A stretch of DNA of 44,311 nucleotides from assembly GCA_000991645.1 (NCBI GenBank), contig LBRX01000002.1, positions 1 to 44,311 on the forward strand. The letters run 5' to 3'. Below are positions 10,133 to 44,162 of the stretch, piece by piece. The notes beneath the pieces are model-generated. The model made no database searches. It was given only the letters and a program-made list of their open reading frames with translations, and was not told the DNA's origin. Source of the DNA: Candidatus Moranbacteria bacterium GW2011_GWE2_36_40. Its GTDB lineage: Bacteria > Patescibacteriota > Minisyncoccia > Moranbacterales > GWC2-37-73. Numbering within the stretch: position 1 is the stretch's first letter; each line of letters opens with the position of its first letter. The position numbers and the translations under genes were made by a program.

Positions 10133-10801
10133 ATGGAAGTGAAGTTGACTGCGAAACAAAAAAACATTCTCGAATCAATTCGAGAACTCACCATGCAAAA
10201 AGGTGAAAAACCAACCAGCTATCGTGTTTGCAAACATCTTGTTGCTCAAGGAGCAAAAGAGAGCATGAAATCAGTGATGCAAGTAATTGAATCATTGGAA
10301 AAAAAGGAACTCATTACTCGCGATGATAAAAAGAAAATTTATCTCGTAGAAAATGATAGTTATGGCGACGCTCAAAACGTTATGTCTATTCCACTTTATG
10401 GTTTGGCATCTTGTGGAGAGGCTTTGGCTTATGCTGATGATAGTGGCACTGATGATTTCTTGCAACTTTCAAGGAGCTTGTTTCAACGCCCTGAGCCAGA
10501 AAAATTGTTTGCAGTTAAAGCTCTAGGAGATTCCATGAATAAAGAGGGAATTAGTGATGGAGACTATGTGATCTTTGAAAAAGCCGAAGGACAAAGTGAT
10601 TTTGAGGGCAAGATCGTGGTTGCTGTGATCAACGGGATGGCCACCATTAAACGTTATAAAAATGTTGGAAAGGGGATTATTGGTCTTTTCCCTCATTCCA
10701 CCAATTTTACTCATCATCCAATCTATCTTTCTGAGGCGGATGTAGTTTTTATTGCTGGGATTTTTAAGAAAGTGTTGCCTGTAAAATTTGTTAGTTTATA
10801 A
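10133..10801 (+). CDS. lexA: LexA-family repressor (wHTH + S24 peptidase)
   Basis: N-terminal LTAKQ wHTH, IPLYGLASCG cleavage region, GDSM catalytic Ser, ATIKR catalytic Lys. Confidence 0.85.
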   Translation: MEVKLTAKQKNILESIRELTMQKGEKPTSYRVCKHLVAQGAKESMKSVMQVIESLEKKELITRDDKKKIYLVENDSYGDAQNVMSIPLYGLASCGEALAYADDSGTDDFLQLSRSLFQRPEPEKLFAVKALGDSMNKEGISDGDYVIFEKAEGQSDFEGKIVVAVINGMATIKRYKNVGKGIIGLFPHSTNFTHHPIYLSEADVVFIAGIFKKVLPVKFVSL

Positions 10802-10820
10802 TATATTTCTTCCATGTCTT

Positions 10821-10863
10821 TCTCTCCTCAGTTGAGGAGAGATGTCCGTAGGACAGAGAGGTT
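10821..10863. repeat. Family-B element after lexA
   Basis: TCTCTCCTCA GT TGAGGAGAGA TGTCC GTA GGACA GAGAGGTT. Confidence 0.85.
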
Positions 10864-16971: not shown

Positions 16972-17178
16972 TTATTTAACTACAAAAGGTGCAAGTGCCA
17001 TCACGCGAGCACGCTTGATTGCTTGAGAAAGTGTTCGTTGGTGTTTTGTGCAAATCCCATGTCTTTTTGGTGGGTAGATTTTTCCTTGTGAGTTCATAAA
17101 TCTGCGAATTAGATAAGCATCTTTGTAGTCGATCTTATCCATTTTTTCATCACAGAAATAACATTGTTTTCGTTCCAT
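16972..17178 (-). CDS. rpsR: 30S ribosomal protein S18 (Zn-binding C+ form)
   Basis: CYFC...IDYKD...C.KHQR...AIKRAR. Confidence 0.98.
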   Translation of the reverse strand: MERKQCYFCDEKMDKIDYKDAYLIRRFMNSQGKIYPPKRHGICTKHQRTLSQAIKRARVMALAPFVVK

Positions 17179-17184
17179 AGATTT

Positions 17185-17263
17185 TAGTTGAGTGGTTGAT
17201 TAGTTGATTTGTTAATTAGGAATTTTTTGAATTTAACCTATTTAACTAATTAACTAAGTGACT
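17185..17263. repeat. Inverted octamer array (TAGTTGAT family)
   Basis: (TAGTTGAT)n-TAGGAATT..CCTA-(TTAACTAA)n. Confidence 0.8.
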
Positions 17264-17274
17264 GTTTAACTTAT

Positions 17275-17763
17275 TTAGAAGGGTACGTCTTCAATTCTAA
17301 CTTCATCAGTTTCTTCATCAAGATTGATGGTTGGAATTTCTTCTGCTATCGGTGCTTGTTGTTGAGAAGCTGGACGAGATGCTGCAGCGGCTGCACCCAT
17401 CGTTGCTGGAGCTGGTCTTGGTCCGGATGAACCTTGCGCACGCTGTCCCATCTGCATGTTTTCAGCAATTATTTCTGTTGTTTTCCTTTCGACTCCGTCT
17501 TTGCCGGTAAAGGAATTTGTTTCGAGTCTTCCTTCGAAATATGCTTCTTGTCCTTTGGTTAGATATTGTCCAGCAATTTCAGCTAAACGTCCCCAAATTA
17601 CAATGTTGTGAAATTCCGTTTTCTCTTGTTTTTGTCCAGCTTTATCATTCCAAGTTCGGTTTGTTGCGATTCCAACTCTAGTCACTGTTTGGCCAGAAGG
17701 AGTGGTGCGCAATTCAGGGTCTCTAGTTAAACGTCCGATGAGTTGAACTTTGTTTAAATTCAT
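17275..17763 (-). CDS. ssb: Single-stranded DNA-binding protein
   Basis: LNKVQLIGRLTRDPELR, acidic EDVPF tail, rpsF-ssb-rpsR synteny. Confidence 0.99.
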   Translation of the reverse strand: MNLNKVQLIGRLTRDPELRTTPSGQTVTRVGIATNRTWNDKAGQKQEKTEFHNIVIWGRLAEIAGQYLTKGQEAYFEGRLETNSFTGKDGVERKTTEIIAENMQMGQRAQGSSGPRPAPATMGAAAAASRPASQQQAPIAEEIPTINLDEETDEVRIEDVPF

Positions 17764-17765
17764 AG

Positions 17766-17843
17766 TAGTTGATTAGTTGATTAGTTGCATAGTTGATTAG
17801 GAATTTTTCCTATTTAACTAGTAAGCTAATTAACTATTTAACT
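17766..17843. repeat. Inverted octamer array (TAGTTGAT family)
   Basis: Same architecture as the 17185 copy. Confidence 0.8.
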
Positions 17844-17868
17844 TTTTAAATTTGTTTAACGAATTTAA

Positions 17869-18426: not shown

Positions 18427-18487
18427 ACGCGTTTTGTTTAATTAATTATAATTGATCAATAAAATTGTGAAAACTTTTTATTGAAAT

Positions 18488-18604
18488 AATTTTGAATTTC
18501 TAATTTTGAATTTCGAATCAAACTTGAATGATAGAATGTTTAAAACATTAAATCATTAAAAATTAAAAATTGATTCGAAATTCGAGTTTCAAAATTCAAA
18601 ATTT
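18488..18604. repeat. Inverted heptamer array (AATTTTG/CAAAATT)
   Basis: Imperfect ~115-bp IR built of heptamers. Confidence 0.75.
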
Positions 18605-18608
18605 CTAC

Positions 18609-18712
18609 AAAAAAATTCCACCAAACAAGAAAATCCTTGCTTTTAGTGGAGCATTCCAACCTATCCGTTTTTGGCTCAACGGCGGGCTAGATTCGGACTT
18701 TCTTAGTTGTGA
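18609..18712 (-). ncRNA. Candidate S6:S18-type leader RNA with terminator hairpin
   Basis: Follows a promoter; stem UCCGAAUCUA/UAGGUUGGA with a GCCCG internal loop and CCGUU/AACGG cap, then a UCCAC..GUGGA hairpin with U tract, upstream of rpsF. Confidence 0.45.
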
Positions 18713-19000: not shown

Positions 19001-19125
19001 CAATTTTCAATTTTTAATTTTCAATTTTCAAACAAATCTCAATGATTCAATGTTATAATTTTCAAACATTGAGAAATTAAGTCATTGGAAATTGTTTAGA
19101 AATTAGAAATTGAAAATTAGAAATT
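19001..19125. repeat. Inverted heptamer array (CAATTTT/AAATTAG)
   Basis: Imperfect ~125-bp IR; sister copy at 44025-44162. Confidence 0.8.
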
Positions 19126-19133
19126 ATTAATCT

Positions 19134-22501: not shown

Positions 22502-25471
22502 ATGCAGGAAAATAAAATAGTCATCAAGGGTGCGCGTGAGCATAACCTAAAAAATATAGATTTGGAGTTGCCTCGAAATAAGTTTATCGTGTTTACGGGG
22601 CTTTCTGGTAGTGGAAAATCAACATTGGCATTTGACACTATCTTTGCGGAAGGTCAGAGAAGATATTTGGAAAGTTTGTCGAGTTATGCTAGGCAATTTT
22701 TGGGACAAATGGATAAGCCTGATGTTGACTATATTGAAGGACTTTCGCCTGCTATTTCTATTGATCAAAAATCAACATCTCACAATCCACGTTCAACGGT
22801 TGGAACTGTAACAGAAATTCATGATTATCTGAGACTTCTTTATGCAAAGATTGGAATTCCACATTGTCCAGAATGTGGACGTGAAATTTCCAAGCTTTCA
22901 ACTGATGAAATTGTGGACAGAATTTTGAATCTCACTGAACCTCACCCCGACCCTCTCCTTAAAAAGGAGAGGGGGGAAAATGGAAACGCGAATACGCGCA
23001 ACGTTTCTATCGAAATTCTTTCACCGTTGGTGCGTGAGCGAAAGGGCGAATATTTGGCGATCCTTGATGATATGTGGAAGCGTGGATTTTCTGAGGCGAT
23101 TGTGGATGGAAAATTATTGCGCCTGGAAGATTTTAAAGATGTAAAGCTTGAGCGATATAAAAAACATAGCATTGATATCATTGTTGATCGTGTTGAAATA
23201 AATGATGAAAATTTGACGCGAATTTTTGAAGGAGTGGAAAAAGCTCTTAGGCTTTCACATGGGATTGTAAAAGTAAAATGTCAAAAACAACAGACAGCAG
23301 ACAATAAACAACAAACAACAAAAAATTCTAAATCCAAAAATTCAGATGAGTGTGAGGTTGAGCAGATTTTTAATCAGAATTTATCTTGTCCAATTCATGA
23401 TATTGAATTTCCAGATTTGGAACCTCGATTGTTTTCATTTAATTCTCCATTTGGTGCCTGTGAAGCTTGTGAGGGATTGGGTGTGAAGAAAGAAATTGAT
23501 CCTGCAAGAATAATGCCAGACAAAAATAAAACCATTGCCGAAGGAGGTTTGATGCCTTGGAGTTATAAAAAAAATAATTATATTGGTTCAGTGCTTAAGG
23601 CGGTTTGTGAATTTTATTATATACCAGACAATAAACGTTTGCGTGACCTGACCAAAACTCAATTGGATTTGTTGCTTTATGGTCATAGTGATGAGGATGT
23701 AATTAGGGTAAAGTTTTTTGCACGCGGGGGTGGAGGACATTTTAATGTGACATGGAAAGGCGTGATCTTTTGGATGCAAGAGCGCTATAGAACAACAACT
23801 TCAGATGCAATTAGACAAGACATTGAAAAATACATGTCTCAAAAGTCTTGTAGTGTTTGCCATGGTTCACGTTATAAAAGTCAGGTGCTTTTAGTTACAG
23901 TTGGACAAAAAAATATTCATGAAACCTCAATTCAAAGCATAAAAGAATGCATATCTTTTTTTGAGCATATTAAACTTACACATCGTGAAGAATTAATTGC
24001 AGGAAGAATCCTCAAGGAAATTGTTGCACGTTTGGTATTTTTGAATAATGTTGGATTGGATTATTTGACATTGCAAAGAGCTGCTTATTCTTTGTCAGGA
24101 GGAGAGTCCCAGCGCATTCGCTTGGCATCACAAATTGGCTCACAATTGGTTGGCGTGCTGTACATTTTGGATGAACCATCTATTGGTCTTCATGCACGTG
24201 ATAATATTAAGCTTATTGACGCATTGCGTCATCTGCAAAAAATAGGAAACACTTTGATTGTTATTGAGCATGATGAAGAAATGATGCGCAGTGCTGATTG
24301 GCTTGTGGATATTGGACCACGTGCCGGAAAACATGGTGGGGAAATTGTTGCTCAAGGAACACCAAATGAGGTTATTAACAATCCCAATTCTCTTACTGGT
24401 CAGTATCTTAGAGGAGAATTGCAAATTGAAATTCCTAAGGTTCGTCGCTCTATAAATAAGAAGAGATCTATTACTGTGCGTGGTGCGAGTGAACACAATC
24501 TTAAGAATGTGACAGTTGAATTTCCACTTAAAGTTTTCACTTGCGTGACTGGAGTTTCTGGCTCTGGAAAATCAACGCTGGTTGAGGACACCTTGTATAA
24601 AGCCTTGGCCAATAAGCTTCATCGTGCACTTGATGTGCCAGCACATCACAATGAAATTATTGGAATTGAGAATATAAACAAAGTAATCATGATTGATCAG
24701 TCACCGATTGGAAGAACACCACGATCAAATCCTGCTACCTATACCGGACTTTTTACACATATTCGTGAATTGTTCGCTAAAACAAAGGATGCTAAATTGC
24801 GAGGATATGGACCAGGACGTTTTTCTTTTAACGTTGCTGGTGGACGTTGTGATAATTGCAGTGGAGAAGGATATTTGAAAATCGAAATGCAATTTATGCC
24901 TGATGTTTATTTGCCGTGTGATGTTTGTCATGGAAAAAGATATAATAGTGAAACACTTCAAGTGAAATTCAAAGGTAAAAATATTGCAGAAGTATTGGGA
25001 ATGACTGTTTCGGAAGGTGTTGAATTTTTTTCCTCAATTTCAAAAATTTCTGATCCTTTGAAAATTTTGGAAGATGTTGGCTTGGGATATATCGAACTTG
25101 GTCAAAGTGCTACCACGCTTTCTGGCGGGGAAGCGCAAAGAATAAAACTCGCCTCTGAACTTTCCCGTCGTGCTACTGGGGACACGTTGTATATCCTGGA
25201 TGAACCAACCACAGGGCTGCATTTTGATGATATAAAAAAATTATTGGAAGTACTTAATCGTCTTGTAAATGCTGGCAACACCGTTGTTGTAATTGAACAT
25301 AATATGGATGTTATTAAAACTGCTGACTGGATTATTGATATGGGGCCAGAGGGTGGAGATGGTGGCGGAAAGATTATCGTTACTGGCCCACCGGAAGAAA
25401 TCATCAAATATTATAAAGAAAGCTACACCGCCAAATATTTGCGGCAAGTTTTGAAACCGAAAAGTCTATAA
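22502..25471 (+). CDS. uvrA: Excinuclease ABC subunit A
   Basis: Two ABC domains ([13 protein letters not shown]; [13 protein letters not shown]) and Zn fingers; carries two repeat-derived inserts. Confidence 0.99.
22939..22976. repeat. Family-B element in frame in uvrA
   Basis: ACCTCACCCCGACCCTCTCCTTAAAAAGGAGAGGG, read as [12 protein letters not shown]. Confidence 0.85.
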
Positions 25472-25490
25472 TAGCTTTTTTCTTTATCTT

Positions 25491-25543
25491 TCTCTCCTCA
25501 GATGAGGAGAGATGTCCCGATACGGAATCGGGACAGAGAGGTT
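25491..25543. repeat. Family-B element after uvrA
   Basis: Near-identical to the 10821 copy with a longer second hairpin. Confidence 0.85.
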
Positions 25544-26069: not shown

Positions 26070-26167
26070 CGCGCTTCCTCCTTGAGAATGTTGTTTTGTA
26101 AGAACTATTGATACTTCAAAATAATATGATATATTAAATTGATATTAATGTCAATAATTATTTAATC

Positions 26168-27646
26168 ATGAAAAGAAATAATTTTCAAGATATTGTCAAA
26201 AAATTACCACAAGCACTAGGGGTGTATTTTTTTCGTGGGGGAAAAGGCAAAATTTTGTATATTGGCAAAGCCACAAATTTGCGAAGTCGAGTGGCTTCAT
26301 ATTTTCGCGGGCAGGGTTCGGAGTCCGACTCCGAATTTCGGAGTCGGACTCCGATCACACCACTTAGCGTGGCAGGTCGAAGTGAGTGGATTGGCTTGAT
26401 GGTTTCTCAAGTGGTCAACATTGATTTCGAGCAGACCGATTCTGTGCTGGAGGCTTTAATTTTGGAAAGCAACTCAATCAAAAAACATCAGCCAAAATAT
26501 AATACACTGGAAAAAGATGATAAAAGTTTTTCATATTTTGTTGTGACTAAAGAAGAATTTCCAAAAGTTTTGATTGTGAGGAAAACCGACTTGAAAAATT
26601 ATGTCATTCCGAACTTGTTTCGGAATCTAGAAGAGCCCAGCGAGATCCCTGAGCTAAATTCAGTGCAGGCTCTGAAACAAGTTCAGGATGGCAAAAAAAC
26701 AAACACTAAGAAGCTAATGCCTGAAAAGCTAAAAGCTATTTACGGTCCTTACACAAGCAAGCAGCAGATGCAGATTGCGCTTAAGATTATTCGCAGAATT
26801 TTTCCATTCCATGCTGGCAAACAAAAAACTGAAAAAGGTTGTTTGGATTTTCAAATAGGGATGTGTCCTGGGCCTTATGCGGATGCAATTTCCAAAGTTG
26901 ATTACAGGAAAAATATCTGTGGAATCGAAATGATTTTGCAGGGAAAGAAAAAAAGTTTGATTTCAAGAATGGAAAAAGAAATGCAGACTTTTTCCAAAAG
27001 AAACGAATTTGAAAAAGCGGCAGTCCTCCGAAATAAAATTTTTGCATTGCAACACATTCGCGACGTGGCGCTGATGACAAGAGATTTTGAGCCTGTTGAA
27101 TTTTCTAAAAAGCTAACGCCTAATAAGCTAAAGCCTGCCCGCATTGAGGCTTACGACATCTCTAATATTTCAGGCGATCACGCTGTGGGCTCGATGGTAG
27201 TTTTTTCCGCCAAAGGCGGATCCGCCTTTGGCGGAGAAAACTGGCTGCCGGAAAAATCGCAGTATCGAAAATTCAAAATTAAAACAGTAGAAGGTTCAAA
27301 TGATGTGGCGATGATGAAAGAAGTTTTGTCGCGAAGATTTAATAATGACTGGACAATGCCAGACTTGATTTTGTTAGATGGTGGACAGGGACACGTTAAT
27401 ATGGCAGGGGACTTAGTACGCGAATTAGGACTAGATGTATTGATTGTTGGTGTAGCTAAGGGTAAGACGCGTAAAAATCTCAATTTCCAATTTCCAATTT
27501 CCAATAAAATCCAAATGACTCAATTTCCAAGGGAATTGCAGGATTTTTTGAATGATAAAAATTCAGTAAAGCACATAATGGATGAGGCGCATCGTTTTGC
27601 AATCTCTTATCACCGAAAATTACGCAGCAAAAACTCTTTAAAATAG
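26168..27646 (+). CDS. uvrC: Excinuclease ABC subunit C (short form without HhH)
   Basis: GVY..LYIGKA GIY-YIG domain, UVR domain, RIEAYDIS, DGGQG, DEAHRFAI; multiple in-frame repeat inserts. Confidence 0.95.
   Translation: MKRNNFQDIVKKLPQALGVYFFRGGKGKILYIGKATNLRSRVASYFRGQGSESDSEFRSRTPITPLSVAGRSEWIGLMVSQVVNIDFEQTDSVLEALILESNSIKKHQPKYNTLEKDDKSFSYFVVTKEEFPKVLIVRKTDLKNYVIPNLFRNLEEPSEIPELNSVQALKQVQDGKKTNTKKLMPEKLKAIYGPYTSKQQMQIALKIIRRIFPFHAGKQKTEKGCLDFQIGMCPGPYADAISKVDYRKNICGIEMILQGKKKSLISRMEKEMQTFSKRNEFEKAAVLRNKIFALQHIRDVALMTRDFEPVEFSKKLTPNKLKPARIEAYDISNISGDHAVGSMVVFSAKGGSAFGGENWLPEKSQYRKFKIKTVEGSNDVAMMKEVLSRRFNNDWTMPDLILLDGGQGHVNMAGDLVRELGLDVLIVGVAKGKTRKNLNFQFPISNKIQMTQFPRELQDFLNDKNSVKHIMDEAHRFAISYHRKLRSKNSLK
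26318..26354. repeat. 37-bp palindrome in uvrC (family D)
   Basis: TCGGAGTCCGACTCCGAA-T-TTCGGAGTCGGACTCCGA. Confidence 0.9.
26602..26693. repeat. Family-C element in frame in uvrC
   Basis: TGTCATTCCGAACTTGTTTCGGAATC...CTGAAACAAGTTCAGGATGGCA. Confidence 0.85.
27206..27235. repeat. Perfect 30-bp palindrome in uvrC (family E)
   Basis: TCCGCCAAAGGCGGATCCGCCTTTGGCGGA, read as SAKGGSAFGG. Confidence 0.9.
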
Positions 27647-28187: not shown

Positions 28188-28259
28188 ATCATTTTCTTTG
28201 TTTGCCCTTTTTAAATCAAGGGTTGTTTTTGGTATACTTAAAAAATAAAATTGTATAAT

Positions 28260-29744
28260 ATGCAAAAAATAATAGTTTCTATTGGTGGTATGCATTGTCG
28301 ATCTTGTGAAATATTGGTAGAGGAAAAACTTTCTGAAATTTCTAAAATTAAAAAAATAGAAGTTAACCATAAAAAAGGTGAAGCTGAAATTTTTTATGAT
28401 TCTCAAAAACCCAGCATGATGGAAATTGAGAATGCAATCAGGGAATCGGGATATACTATTGGGGTAATTGAAAAAAAACCATTGTTCAGTAAAAACGTTA
28501 GTGATTATAAGGACCTGGGAATCGCATTCCTGTTTCTTTTTGGTATCTATATTGTAGCAAAAAATTTGGGCTTGACTGATATTGGTATTGGTAACACAAG
28601 CAATCCGTCTAGTCTTGGAGTAGTTTTCTTGGTGGGAATCACTGCTGGAATTTCAACTTGCATGGCATTGGTTGGCGGTTTGATTCTGGGAATTTCTGCT
28701 CGTCATAGTGAAAAAAACCCTGAAGCTACACCTGCACAAAAGTTTCGTCCGCATTTATTTTTCAATGCCGGCAGAATCGCAATCTATGCGTTGTTGGGAG
28801 GTGTGCTCGGACTTATTGGGTCATCATTTCAGTTGTCAGGAATGACTCTGGGAATTTTGACAATCACAGTTGGCATTGTGATGTTAATTCTTGGATTAAA
28901 ATTAATTGGAATTTTTCCCAGATTGGAGAATGGTGGAATTACATTGCCGAAAAGTATTAGCAGTGCGCTTGGTATAAAAAAAAGCACCAAAGAATATAGT
29001 CACAAAAACTCGTTCCTCATGGGCGGGCTGACATTTTTTCTGCCATGCGGATTTACACAGGCAATGCAGCTTTACGCTGTAAGTAGTGGAAGTTTCACTC
29101 AGGGAGCTTTGATTATGGGAATATTCGCACTTGGAACTGCTCCGGGACTTTTGGGAGTCGGTGGGCTTGCCAGTGTGGTGCGTGGAATTTTTGCCAAGCG
29201 CTTCTTTAAATTCTCTGGAATACTGGTAATATTTTTGGCTATATTTAATATGGCTAATGGGTATAATCTGACAGGTTGGCAATTATTAACTAACAACTCA
29301 CAACCCACAACTAGTAACCTGCCTACCGGACAGGCAGGCAAACAAAATGATCCGAATGTGACGATGGAAAATGGAGTGCAGGTTGTGAGGATGAAAGAAA
29401 TAGCAAGCGGTTATTCGCCGAACAAATTTACCATCAAAAAGGGTGTGCCGGTCAAATGGATTATTGATGCTCAGGCACCATATTCATGTGCTAGTAGTTT
29501 GGTGGTTTCAAGCTTGAAAATTCAAAAAACTTTGAAAGCCAGTGAAAATATTATTGAATTTACCCCAAAAGAGACTGGTAAAATCCCATTCTCTTGCAGT
29601 ATGGGGATGTATACGGGACTTTTTAATGTTGTTGATGAAAATGGTGGCAGCGAAATTGTCGAAGAAATAAGTGACAAGGACAAAACTCCTAATGGAATAT
29701 GTAATATGCAAGGATGTACAATAAATAAGGATCAAACTAAATAA
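28260..29744 (+). CDS. HMA + DsbD_2/TauE-like membrane + cupredoxin-domain protein
   Basis: [33 protein letters not shown]. Confidence 0.85.
29288..29338. repeat. Heptamer run plus family-F hairpin inside a CDS
   Basis: (AACTAAC)-like units followed by CCTGCCT ACCGGAC AGGCAGG, read as [17 protein letters not shown]. Confidence 0.75.
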
Positions 29745-36777: not shown

Positions 36778-36783
36778 TAAGGT

Positions 36784-38459
36784 ATGAAGAAAAACATCCA
36801 AAAAATTATTAAAAGTGCCTTAACTGAGGCAAAAAAGTCCAATGGCTGGCCTGATTTTGAGTTGAATGAAATTATAGTGGACTACCCAAAAAGCGAGCAA
36901 TTTGGGGATTATACTTCAAATATTGCCATGATTCTAGCCAAGAAAATTGGTAAAAATCCAATGGAAACGGCAAATTATCTCAAGGAGATTATTTGTCGTC
37001 CTGAACTTGTTTCAGGATCCCGTGATGTTACGAATGGCGCGCAAAGCATAGAGATGCTGAAACAAGTTCAGCATGACATGACAGGGATTTTTGAAAAAAT
37101 AGAGGTGGCTCAGCCGGGATATCTTAATTTCTATCTTTCTAAAAAATATTTGCAAGATATTGTTGAAAAAATAAATACTGAGAAAGAGAAATTTGGAAAT
37201 TCTGAAGTTGGAAAAAATATTAAAATTAACAATGAGTTTATTTCTGCCAATCCGACCGGACCACTTCATCTTGGAAATGGACGTGGTGGATTTTATGGAG
37301 ATTCTCTTTCACGCGTTTTGCGAAAGGCTGGATTTGAGGTAACGAATGAATATTACGTTAATGATGCTGGTGGGCAAGTTGAAAAATTAGGGCATAGTGT
37401 TTTGAAAGACGAAGAGGCTTCATACACTGGAGAATATATTGATGAGCTTAATAAGAAGTATGCAAAGCTAAAAGATGTACGAGAGATTGGAAAAATTGCA
37501 GCTCGTGAAGTTTTGGAAAATATCATCAAAAAAACTACCAAAGAAAAAATGCAAATTTCTTTTGATGAATGGACAAGTGAACAAAAACTTAGTGATGAGG
37601 GATATGATAAGCGCGCTATTTCATTGCTCAAGGAAAAAGGATTAACCTATGAATCAGAAGGTGCGCTGTGGCTTAAGACTACTGACTTTGGTGATGATAA
37701 AGACAGGGTTTTAATTAAAAAAGATGGTAAAAATGCTTATATAGCTGGAGATTGTGGTTATATGCTCAATAAAATTGAAAGAGGGTATTCGCGATTAATT
37801 ATGGGACTTGGTGCTGATCATCACGGATATGTGTCGCGGCTTAAAGCAGTGGCGTTAGCGCTTGGATTTAATGAAGATTTTAGAATAATTATTTCACAAT
37901 TGGTTAGGTTGATAAAGGATGGTAAAGAAGCCCGCATGAGTAAACGCGCAGGAAATGTTATTAATCTTGATGATTTGATTGATGAAATAGGACACGATGT
38001 AACAATATTTTTCTTCTTGATGTATTCTCCTGATACTCATATGAATTTTGATTTGGGATTAGCAAAAGAGCGTAGTTCTAAAAATCCTGTTTTTTATGTG
38101 CAGTATGCACATGCGAGAATCGCCAGTATTCTTGCAAAGTCACAAATAACTAACAATCTACAACAAACAACAGAAAAAACAAAAAATTTGAATTTTGACC
38201 GTAGTAAGTCGTTAGTTGTTAGTTGTGGGTTATTGACTCATGAAAAGGAATTGAGTTTGAAAGTTATGAGGTTCACAAACTTCCGCAATATGCAATGAAA
38301 TTGGCTGACAAATTTCATAGTTTTTATGATGCATGTAAGGTTATTGATGAGAATAATGAAGAGTTAACAATCGCTAGACTTTCTTTGATAAATGCTGTTA
38401 GAATAGTGTTAGCTGAAGTCCTTGAGCTTATTGGGGTGGGTGCACCTTCTAAGATGTAA
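36784..38459 (+). CDS. argS: Arginine-tRNA ligase, frameshifted near 38259
   Basis: SANPTGPLHLGNGR, MSKRAG, YVQYAHAR; C-terminus ESYEVHKLPQY...FHSFY...APSKM* continues in the -1 frame (38259-38459). Confidence 0.93.
36994..37078. repeat. Family-C element in frame in argS
   Basis: TGTCGTCCTGAACTTGTTTCAGGATC...GATGCTGAAACAAGTTCAGCATGACA. Confidence 0.88.
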
Positions 38460-38498
38460 AATTAGCTTAAAAGGTGGTTTAAATTGAAAATTATGAGA

Positions 38499-38573
38499 AG
38501 TTAATTAGTTGCATAGGTAATTAGTTAGATAGGAATTCCTAATTAACTAATAAACTAATTAACCAATCAACTA
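38499..38573. repeat. Inverted octamer array (TAGTTGAT family)
   Basis: Same architecture, reverse orientation, directly before the GT4 ATG. Confidence 0.8.
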
Positions 38574-38578
38574 AATAT

Positions 38579-43300: not shown

Positions 43301-44023
43301 ATGGAATATAAATACACTGGCATTATTTTAAATAAGCGTGATGCGGGAGAAACTGACAGGATTTGCACAATCTATACTCTTGAAGGTGGCAAAATTCGTT
43401 CATTGGCTAAAGGTGTTCGCAAAGCTCAGGCCAAACTGGCTGCTTCATTGGAAAATATCACTTTGGCTGATATCACAATTGTTAGAGCTAGAGGTTTAGG
43501 TAAGATAACAGGTTCTATTGTGGAAAATAATTTTTCTTTTCTTAAACAAGATATTGATGCATTGACGGAAGCTTTTGGAGGACTAGCCATCTTTGATAAA
43601 ATGGTTGACTATGAACATCCTGATGATGCAGTGTTTGTCTTGCTCAAGGAATATCTTGAGGCGGTTGAAATTGCTGCCGTGGAAAAATTGTCGGAAAAAC
43701 AAATTTTGTTGCGGCTTGGTTTTACAATAAAATTATTGGATTCTCTTGGCTATGCGCTTGAGGTTGATAAGTGTGTTGCTTGCGGGGGAAAATTAAACGA
43801 AAAATCAATTTCTTTTAATTCTCGCTCTGGCGGTGTTTTGTGTGGAAATTGTCCTTCGCAGCATGATGATTCCCTGAGTTTGCCCATAAGCTCTAATGCT
43901 ATAAAAATGATAAGATTATTTTTGGCAAACAATATGGCCACACTTGGAAAAATAAAAGCTTCTCGTCAGGATTATGACAGTGTTCGTTTGGTGGTGGATG
44001 ACTTTTTGAGATGGACACTATAA
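43301..44023 (+). CDS. recO: DNA repair protein RecO
   Basis: GIILN..GETDRI..YT..GKI..AKGVRK, CxxC..CxxC Zn finger; ATG 43301. Confidence 0.95.
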   Translation: MEYKYTGIILNKRDAGETDRICTIYTLEGGKIRSLAKGVRKAQAKLAASLENITLADITIVRARGLGKITGSIVENNFSFLKQDIDALTEAFGGLAIFDKMVDYEHPDDAVFVLLKEYLEAVEIAAVEKLSEKQILLRLGFTIKLLDSLGYALEVDKCVACGGKLNEKSISFNSRSGGVLCGNCPSQHDDSLSLPISSNAIKMIRLFLANNMATLGKIKASRQDYDSVRLVVDDFLRWTL

Positions 44024-44024
44024 A

Positions 44025-44162
44025 AATTTTTAATTTTCAATTTTTAATTTCTAAACAATCCGCCAGCTGGCGAACTAGTGACTTAACTTTAAAATTTTTA
44101 AAAAATTGATGCATTGGAACATTGAGATTTGTTTGAAAATTGAAAATTGTGAATTGTAAATT
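44025..44162. repeat. Inverted heptamer array with nested family-E half site
   Basis: AATTTT(C/T) units...TCCGCCAGCTGGCG...GAAAATT units. Confidence 0.75.

Follow-up and report, generated by a model that had tools for sequence, protein, structure and literature searches.

The uvrC gene of Candidatus Moranbacteria bacterium GW2011_GWE2_36_40 raises the question of how much of a conserved repair enzyme can consist of translated DNA repeats, and of which among these repeats were inserted and which belong to older linkers. The window, a stretch of 44,311 nucleotides, is contig C2 of a genome of 1.006 Mb (here G000) that comprises 63 contigs, has 36% G+C and is 94.6% complete. A sequence-only reading of the window had described UvrC as a mosaic of six or more in-frame element insertions that amount to roughly 90 of 492 residues and leave the frame and the catalytic motifs intact, implying selection for function. 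All six peptides quoted in that reading are located in the open reading frame where it had placed them. The gene, its domains and the repeat patches, all on the + strand, are as follows:

26168..27646, +, uvrC coding sequence, 492 amino acids plus stop, the same open reading frame as first described
26219-26503, +, GIY-YIG domain (Pfam PF01541), residues 18-112
26312..26371, +, site 1 block with the D palindrome, residues 49-68, a net gain of 17 amino acids in the GIY-YIG domain
26603..26692, +, C element (site 2), exactly 90 nt, residues 146-175, aligned with intergenic copies and with uvrC copies of relatives
26647..26670 (approximate), +, nested 24-nt hairpin module in C, found only in the uvrC and C34 copies among ten aligned
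26708..26737, +, AAGCTA-type heptamer patch 1, KKLMPEKLKA, residues 181-190, with six other loci
26951-27055, +, UvrB-binding UVR motif (Pfam PF02151), residues 262-296
27107..27136, +, AAGCTA-type heptamer patch 2 (site 3), KKLTPNKLKP, residues 314-323, with nine other loci
27131-27604, +, RNase H-like endonuclease domain (Pfam PF08459, UvrC_RNaseH), residues 322-479
27206..27235, +, E palindrome (site 4), exactly 30 nt, SAKGGSAFGG, residues 347-356, an insertion in the RNase H-like domain
27481..27530, +, CAATTTC array with a conserved non-repeat core (site 5), residues ~439-455, with six other loci

The product of the gene scores 304.2 bits against the TIGR00194 equivalog model (cut-off 285.45), and its best sequence matches in the PDB are solved fragments of UvrC. 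In an alignment of 30 sequences, residues Y20, Y31, R41, E100 and N112 of the GIY-YIG catalytic site and D330 and D404 of the endonuclease domain are invariant. H475 is retained in at least 90% of the sequences and is lacking only where a contig end truncates the gene. The five GIY-YIG residues are those that we take to be equivalent to Y19, Y29, R39, E76 and N88 of T. maritima; the offsets in the sequence and fold alignments with solved structures are consistent with this equivalence. Core dN/dS between the uvrC of G000 and those of seven relatives is 0.054-0.100, far from neutral, with core dS of 0.9-1.1 against the two nearest relatives and saturation for more distant ones. A C-terminal tandem HhH2 DNA-binding domain is typical of UvrC but not universal; a Pfam search of the protein found no HhH family at E<=0.01, the chain ends 13 residues past the RNase H-like domain, and HhH2 is missing also in all 28 relatives that have their C-terminus within the contig. 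As far as constraint on the sequence can indicate enzyme function, uvrC appears to be a working gene under strong purifying selection, with an open frame and intact catalytic motifs as first proposed.

An AF2 model of the protein, with the 30-sequence alignment as input, has a mean pLDDT of 70. Its GIY-YIG domain matches the fold of 1yd6 (Z 16.2, rmsd 1.6, 94 residues aligned, span 3-118), and its C-terminal half matches 8b0q (Z 16.7) and 2nrz (Z 16.0), with 134-146 residues aligned within 322-486; superposition of model residues 322-483 on residues 359-496 of the 2nrz chain places D330 on 367 and H475 on 488. The inserts are left out of both nuclease-domain superpositions on solved structures. 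Values of pLDDT below 50 are confined to residues 53-70, 146-185, 302-321, 434-436 and 440-446 and to short stretches of the Cys-rich region. The inserts are accordingly placed by the model, where surface loops had been anticipated, in predicted low-confidence loops that would lie outside the catalytic folds, a surface loop being judged from low pLDDT together with alignment gaps.

All six segments belong to repeat families that are dispersed over the genome, well beyond chance. A search of the 1.0-Mb genome with each segment (blastn-short, E<=1e-3) found further loci for D (4), C (8), heptamer patch 1 (6), heptamer patch 2 (9), E (4) and the CAATTTC run (6), and none of the six had a match in any of five simulated genomes of equal size (order-3 Markov). 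A family-blind census of 16-mers with three or more occurrences, counting both strands, covered 3.4% of the real genome versus 0.28% of one simulated genome; a census of 13-mers, which covered 15.9% of the genome, was dropped as too lenient in favor of the calibrated 16-mers. The 16-mer census recovered six patches in uvrC at exactly the six places first noticed, and these come from at least five repeat families. Among 612 open frames of at least 200 amino acids, counted from stop to stop and not as curated genes, uvrC ranks third, behind two frames of 2631 and 1211 amino acids that have a common patch pattern, and 372 of the 612 have no repeat patch. Repeat 16-mers make up 9.2% of bases outside these long frames versus 1.3% inside. 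In UvrC, 88-99 of the 492 residues (18-20% of the protein) are repeat-derived, a count that bears out the estimate made by eye.

Most of the other copies lie in short frames, and the families are mainly intergenic. Copies read in frame in Pfam-supported genes number one of four for D, three of four for E, one of nine for heptamer patch 2 and two of six for the CAATTTC run, and the following genes carry repeats of these families:

D copy in frame, class I methyltransferase
E copies in frame, DNA polymerase I 5'-3' exonuclease domain, TPP enzyme and ATP synthase gamma
AAGCTA unit in frame, PrmC-like methyltransferase
CAATTTC runs in frame, inter-domain linkers of a GT4 glycosyltransferase and a MiaB-like enzyme
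36999-37071 of the window, C-type element, arginyl-tRNA synthetase

Whether each patch is an insertion was decided by comparison with orthologs. A search of 41 genomes, 36 of which had a match, yielded 30 loci including that of G000 itself, and the UvrC of the 29 relatives was compared as protein and codon alignments. In a wider set, 78 of 80 loci were kept (the two dropped had an open frame below 380 amino acids) and split by identity into 37 Moranbacteria-like sequences and 41 from other members of the candidate phyla radiation (CPR). The medians of the other-CPR sequences at the five sites are 7, 14, 14, 6 and 22 amino acids, versus 24, 51, 19, 16 and 35 in G000. The UvrC of G000 exceeds these medians by ~82 amino acids, near the number of repeat-derived residues, and exceeds the shortest same-genus orthologs (424-426 amino acids) by ~66. 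The segments match no conserved sequence in distant UvrCs, as the claim of insertion had required. With respect to same-genus orthologs, however, the net insertions are D, C and E only, and the remaining three patches (both AAGCTA-type runs and the CAATTTC run) represent old linkers or loops made of heptamer repeats rather than recent insertions. The mosaic of six insertions is thus upheld as six in-frame repeat patches, three of which were inserted. The same division holds for folding: D, C and E form strong hairpins, and the heptamer patches do not fold (z -0.1, +0.4 and +1.8).

The peptide encoded by D, SESDSEFRSRTP, occupies residues 51-62 (26318-26353), and the core of the element (26318-26354) consists of two self-complementary 17-nt halves with a 3-nt centre, a fold energy of -22 kcal/mol and a hairpin z of -7.7. 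The block sits between helices 38-45 and 73-80 and follows the motif YFRG; the residues between the anchors of site 1 number 24 in G000 and 4-9 in 22 of 29 relatives. A clean empty site is seen at the DNA level in six same-genus orthologs. Site 1 is expanded to at least 12 amino acids in seven of the 29 relatives; the sister genome G003 has a C-type element there, and G020 has yet another sequence. In the wider set, 17 of 79 sequences are expanded at site 1, all of them Moranbacteria-like, and none of the 41 other-CPR sequences is.

The C element at site 2 adds 30 amino acids net, its peptide (VIPNLFRNL..LKQVQDG) lying where it was first placed. In alignment with intergenic copies on C34, C49, C13 and C8, it is seen to consist of a GTCAT tag, a hairpin of 8-9 bp, a short spacer, an inverted hairpin and a degenerate ATGAC tag (hairpin z -4.4), and it is REP-doublet-like. 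The nested hairpin noticed within it is real, being a module in common with the intergenic copy on C34. C is missing from G007, G008 and G001, in which site 2 is a heptamer-built linker of 17 amino acids only; G020 has an orthologous C copy, and G003 and G006 have other GTCAT...ATGAC doublets with an identical start point. The spacer of the intragenic copies (site 2 of G000, site 1 of G003, site 2 of G020) is short, free of stop codons and common to all three, and the spacers of intergenic copies are longer.

In E, two 13-nt hairpins together make up a perfect palindrome of 30 nt (z -9.2), and the stems of other copies of its family are preserved through compensatory paired changes. In the AF2 model it is placed at a beta-hairpin turn between strands 338-349 and 358-361. 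Site 4 has six residues in 24 of 29 relatives, which is the empty state, versus 16 in G000, in which the extra DNA is exactly the palindrome (10 amino acids net), and there is a gap opposite E in all three solved UvrCs with alignments shown. The in-frame copies of E are read in one Gly/Ser/Ala-rich frame in four cases of four, although all three frames read as open. E is found at the exact site also in G002, and a different insert is found there in G007. G002 is not the sister of G000 in the core tree, so that the presence of E at one site in both calls either for a preferred site or for several lineages to have lost E.

The heptamer patches are of another kind. Patch 1 is part of an old linker ahead of the conserved YGP, with an array of the same type at the matching place in G007, G008, G001 and G020. 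Patch 2 belongs to the linker that joins the UVR motif to the RNase H-like domain; this linker has 19 amino acids in G000 versus a median of 16 in relatives, with no net insertion. KKLTPNKLKP is identical in G007, and in most relatives a tract of equal length is made of other heptamer units. Each AAGCTA-type patch is a copy of a unit of 26-28 nt, inverted pairs of which are frequent between genes (on C44, C33 and C10). A rule by which the units of sites 2 and 3 would be the same within a genome was dropped: the two sites match in G003 and G019, nearly match in G006 and are by eye both of AAGCTA type in G000 and G007, but they differ in G005, G020, G008, G001 and others. At site 5, which encodes the peptide NFQFPISN..TQFP (residues 439-454), three to four CAATTTC units occupy 27481-27501. 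The patch corresponds to the left arm plus the conserved centre of a longer heptamer-armed hairpin element, whose intergenic copies on C24 and C5 also bear the right arm as an inverted array. Site 5 has 35 amino acids in G000, versus medians of 32-34 in Moranbacteria-like sequences and 22 in other CPR, so that the CAATTTC run adds 1-3 amino acids over the former and ~13 over the latter. That the heptamers are older and the palindromes younger is supported by E-type palindromes nested within the site-5 heptamer element in the relatives L045 and L071, and by the adjacency of C to a heptamer linker, including KKLMPEKLKA, that exists also in orthologs without C.

These observations probably reflect a working uvrC whose loops and linkers took up the small non-coding repeats of its genome, which are translated straight through. 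An old layer of heptamer tracts would make up the linkers on both sides of the central Cys/UVR region as well as a loop in the RNase H-like domain; these tracts would have been present before the genera split and would have evolved since as DNA repeats under constraint of length and frame, by a combination of unit mutation, slippage and homogenisation. A young layer of REP-doublet-type palindromes (D, C and E) would have been inserted precisely, in multiples of three nucleotides, at spots that are empty or hold a different element in related genomes. Insertion would occur genome-wide, and selection would retain only those copies that preserve the frame, lack stop codons and encode harmless flexible peptides in tolerant loops. 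The differing repeats held by the uvrC sites of relatives, whether orthologs of C or other elements at shared sites, are consistent with such a process. No target-site duplication or other footprint of transposition is readable at the junctions of D, C and E, and a Y1/RAYT transposase (PF01797) has no match in the 94.6%-complete G000 genome, as compared with matches in six of 14 control genomes.

As an alternative, the mosaic could be an artefact of metagenome mis-assembly across repeats, by which pieces of co-occurring relatives were joined. The same samples do contain, at greater depth, a relative resembling G007 that lacks D and C, and groundwater Logan contigs break at C and at heptamer patch 2, with none spanning the whole of uvrC. 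Such an origin is nevertheless very improbable: the frame is open across all junctions, the core tree consistently puts G000 beside G003, comparable inserts occupy matching sites in independent genomes, and contig pieces from two groundwater samples cover 26100-26575 (including D) and 26602-27101 with 0 differences, although these may derive from the source data. In the parts of uvrC covered by the Logan contigs, no presence/absence polymorphism of the G000 allele was found; contigs that seemed to skip D and C as allele variants belong to the co-occurring G007-like relative, which is ~86% identical. A search for sequencing runs that contain the gene listed no RNA run. The same contigs bear on the idea that the heptamer runs are contingency tracts, prone to slippage, that frameshift uvrC off and on. 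Heptamer tracts are known slippage substrates, and the gain or loss of one 7-nt unit shifts the frame. The number of heptanucleotide units is reported to range from 2 to 26 in other bacteria (PMC4692102). The tracts of uvrC, by comparison, are short and imperfect with 2-4 units, 30 of 30 orthologs are in frame, and among the groundwater Logan contigs no clear change in unit number is seen for the G000 allele (an 8-letter insertion at 27109 in one contig may stem from another repeat copy), so that phase variation of this kind has very little probability.

Exaptation is also unlikely; in this case the repeat-derived segments, above all the heptamer tracts, would serve UvrC as flexible linkers of fixed length or as contact peptides, or would be DNA or RNA signals embedded in the gene. 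Site 3 varies in sequence but keeps a length of 13-26 amino acids in 27 of 29 relatives, and most relatives fill both sites 2 and 3 with heptamer runs. On the other hand, the peptides of close relatives at one site are completely different, D, C and E are missing or replaced by other elements in same-genus orthologs, the segments have low model confidence, and the UvrCs of other CPR manage with far shorter loops. The observation that tolerated junk does not simply predict is the conservation of third positions at site 5. The DNA of this site is 88-93% identical between G000 and five of 29 relatives, of which G003 is in the same genus and G020, G017, G011 and G019 are in four others; third positions agree in 19 of 20 codons in four of these carriers and in 16 of 20 in the fifth, compared with only 41-62% agreement of core third positions. 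The carriers are scattered over the core tree, the near-identical form is missing in the same-genus G001, G005, G006, G007 and G008, and a degenerate form of the element is found in further relatives beyond the five. Lateral transfer of a larger uvrC segment was rejected as the cause because the high identity is limited to residues ~431-450, and gene conversion from the intergenic copies of G000 was rejected because the orthologous copies, which share differences from those intergenic copies, are closer to each other than to them. Because third positions at site 5 hardly vary over at least five genera, in a gene otherwise saturated for silent substitutions, the heptamer elements may not be passive, and the element at 27481-27530 may be kept by selection at the DNA or RNA level as a cis-acting signal in the coding sequence, a reading to which only a small probability is given. 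If it were true, the CAATTTC element would be, for example, a protein-binding array or an mRNA element inside a coding sequence, and the linkers that flank the UVR motif would belong to a system, common to the lineage, by which protein linkers are supplied and renewed from repeat DNA.

With uptake and tolerance of non-coding repeats as the preferred account, the uvrC mosaic may work like the Rickettsia palindromic elements (RPEs) and the intragenic REPs, as an unusually dense case of selfish DNA inside genes. RPEs usually occur once per gene and fall into ten sequence families in Rickettsia. They were described by Ogata et al. (2000) and are given a length of ~150 bp in a MITE review that summarises this work (PMC10969869), and insertion followed by selective retention has been proposed both there and, for intragenic REPs, in PMC3733652. 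The likeness to RPEs is that dispersed, hairpin-forming, non-autonomous repeats are found in frame in unrelated housekeeping genes of a bacterium with a small genome, adding peptide segments to proteins that remain unbroken; in uvrC the copies are in frame, and those that form hairpins are D, C and E only. The differences are that the uvrC elements are 30, ~37 and 90 nt and are set apart by size from RPEs of the length given in that review, that at least five families and six patches with heptamer arrays mixed in are found in one protein of 492 amino acids, and that the host phylum belongs to the CPR.

The REPs described by Di Nocera, De Gregorio and Rocco (2013, PMC3733652), with GTAG- and CGTC-tagged classes, are palindromes of 20-40 bp, for the most part intergenic and frequently paired as inverted dimers. 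Some are contained entirely in open reading frames and code for 20-30 amino acids, and the paper also reports intragenic REPs in repair genes with a bias to excision-repair genes. D and E, each with two self-complementary halves, and C, with two inverted hairpins around a spacer, resemble these elements in structure, and the lack of a dedicated transposase in evidence for the uvrC elements is a likeness to the CGTC class of that paper. By eye, the aligned copies of D, C and E have no consistent GTAG/CTAC or CGTC/GACG end tags; the ends of the C family are GTCAT...ATGAC and neither GTAG nor CGTC. Unlike a REPIN/RAYT system, the uvrC elements have no RAYT match in their genome, and the CPR are not among the phyla named for intragenic REPs in the available text of PMC3733652.

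The heptamer tracts have a different counterpart. Cyanobacterial STRR sequences are heptanucleotide simple repeats. GGGNATC heptanucleotide repeats have been described in Xanthomonas and Nostoc (Rehm et al. 2015, PMC4692102), and the tracts of uvrC are like them in being dispersed tandem 7-nt units that are over-represented outside genes in arrays of few units. They differ in that the uvrC units are A/T-rich and unable to form G-quadruplexes, in that units of this type are the arms of long intergenic hairpin elements, and in that they are translated here, in frame, into linkers whose positions are conserved in an enzyme of essential type.

A literature search found no published description of such repeats in CPR genes. 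With an empty ortholog site available for each young insert, uvrC offers a clean and dated example of a minimal-genome bacterium that tolerates mobile hairpin DNA and repeat tracts in a conserved repair enzyme, and the positions of the inserts map the loops of UvrC that are able to accept 10-30 extra residues. The published bias of intragenic REPs toward excision-repair genes is repeated in this uvrC, and the analogy, if it holds, would extend the picture drawn from Rickettsia and from REPs to the candidate phyla radiation.

The UvrC protein of the source genome (26168-27646, + strand) lacks the HhH2 DNA-binding domain and stops just past the RNase H-like domain; both traits recur in 28 of 28 aligned relatives (among loci L002-L030) with the C-terminus on the contig. 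The open frames of the 41 UvrCs from other CPR genomes in the wider set are approximately 390-450 residues long.

The uvrC of relative G014 (locus L026), with a product of 587 residues, has big additional blocks at sites 1, 2 and 3 of the five repeat-bearing positions and between residues 390 and 395, and is a mosaic more heavily loaded than that of the source genome. At site 5, in a loop of the RNase H-like domain, the heptamer element holds small nested palindromes of the E type in two relatives (L045, L071). The peptide LPTGQAG, inserted at site 4 in relative G007 (L011), recurs in the DsbD/HMA/cupredoxin protein encoded at 28251-29744 of the window, and is probably one more translated repeat family.

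The window's arginyl-tRNA synthetase has an in-frame hairpin doublet of the C type, placed past the N-terminal domain (residues 5-76) and ahead of the catalytic domain. Two uvrA paralogs are present, seen as a 300-nt direct repeat with 71% identity, and the first, with a product of 989 residues, includes a heptamer-like run that is translated in frame as a Gln/Thr/Lys-rich stretch.

22502-25471, + strand, first uvrA
23276-23312, heptamer-like run in the first uvrA
from about 32565 on, second uvrA
36781-38295, + strand, arginyl-tRNA synthetase frame
36999-37071, C-type hairpin doublet within that frame

Between genes, the window has long hairpins with arms that are arrays of 7-8-nt units of several types, some hairpins being near-identical to one another across the window. 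There are also three copies, 80-85% alike, of an element of approximately 55-60 nt with a GC-rich hairpin.

17168-17275, long hairpin
17749-17855, long hairpin
18476-18615, long hairpin
19001-19129, long hairpin
38494-38576, long hairpin
44021-44162, long hairpin
112-171, GC-rich-hairpin element
10787-10847, GC-rich-hairpin element
25463-25517, GC-rich-hairpin element

The GC-rich-hairpin elements are positioned at gene ends, with one copy immediately 3' of uvrA, and look like terminator-type repeats.
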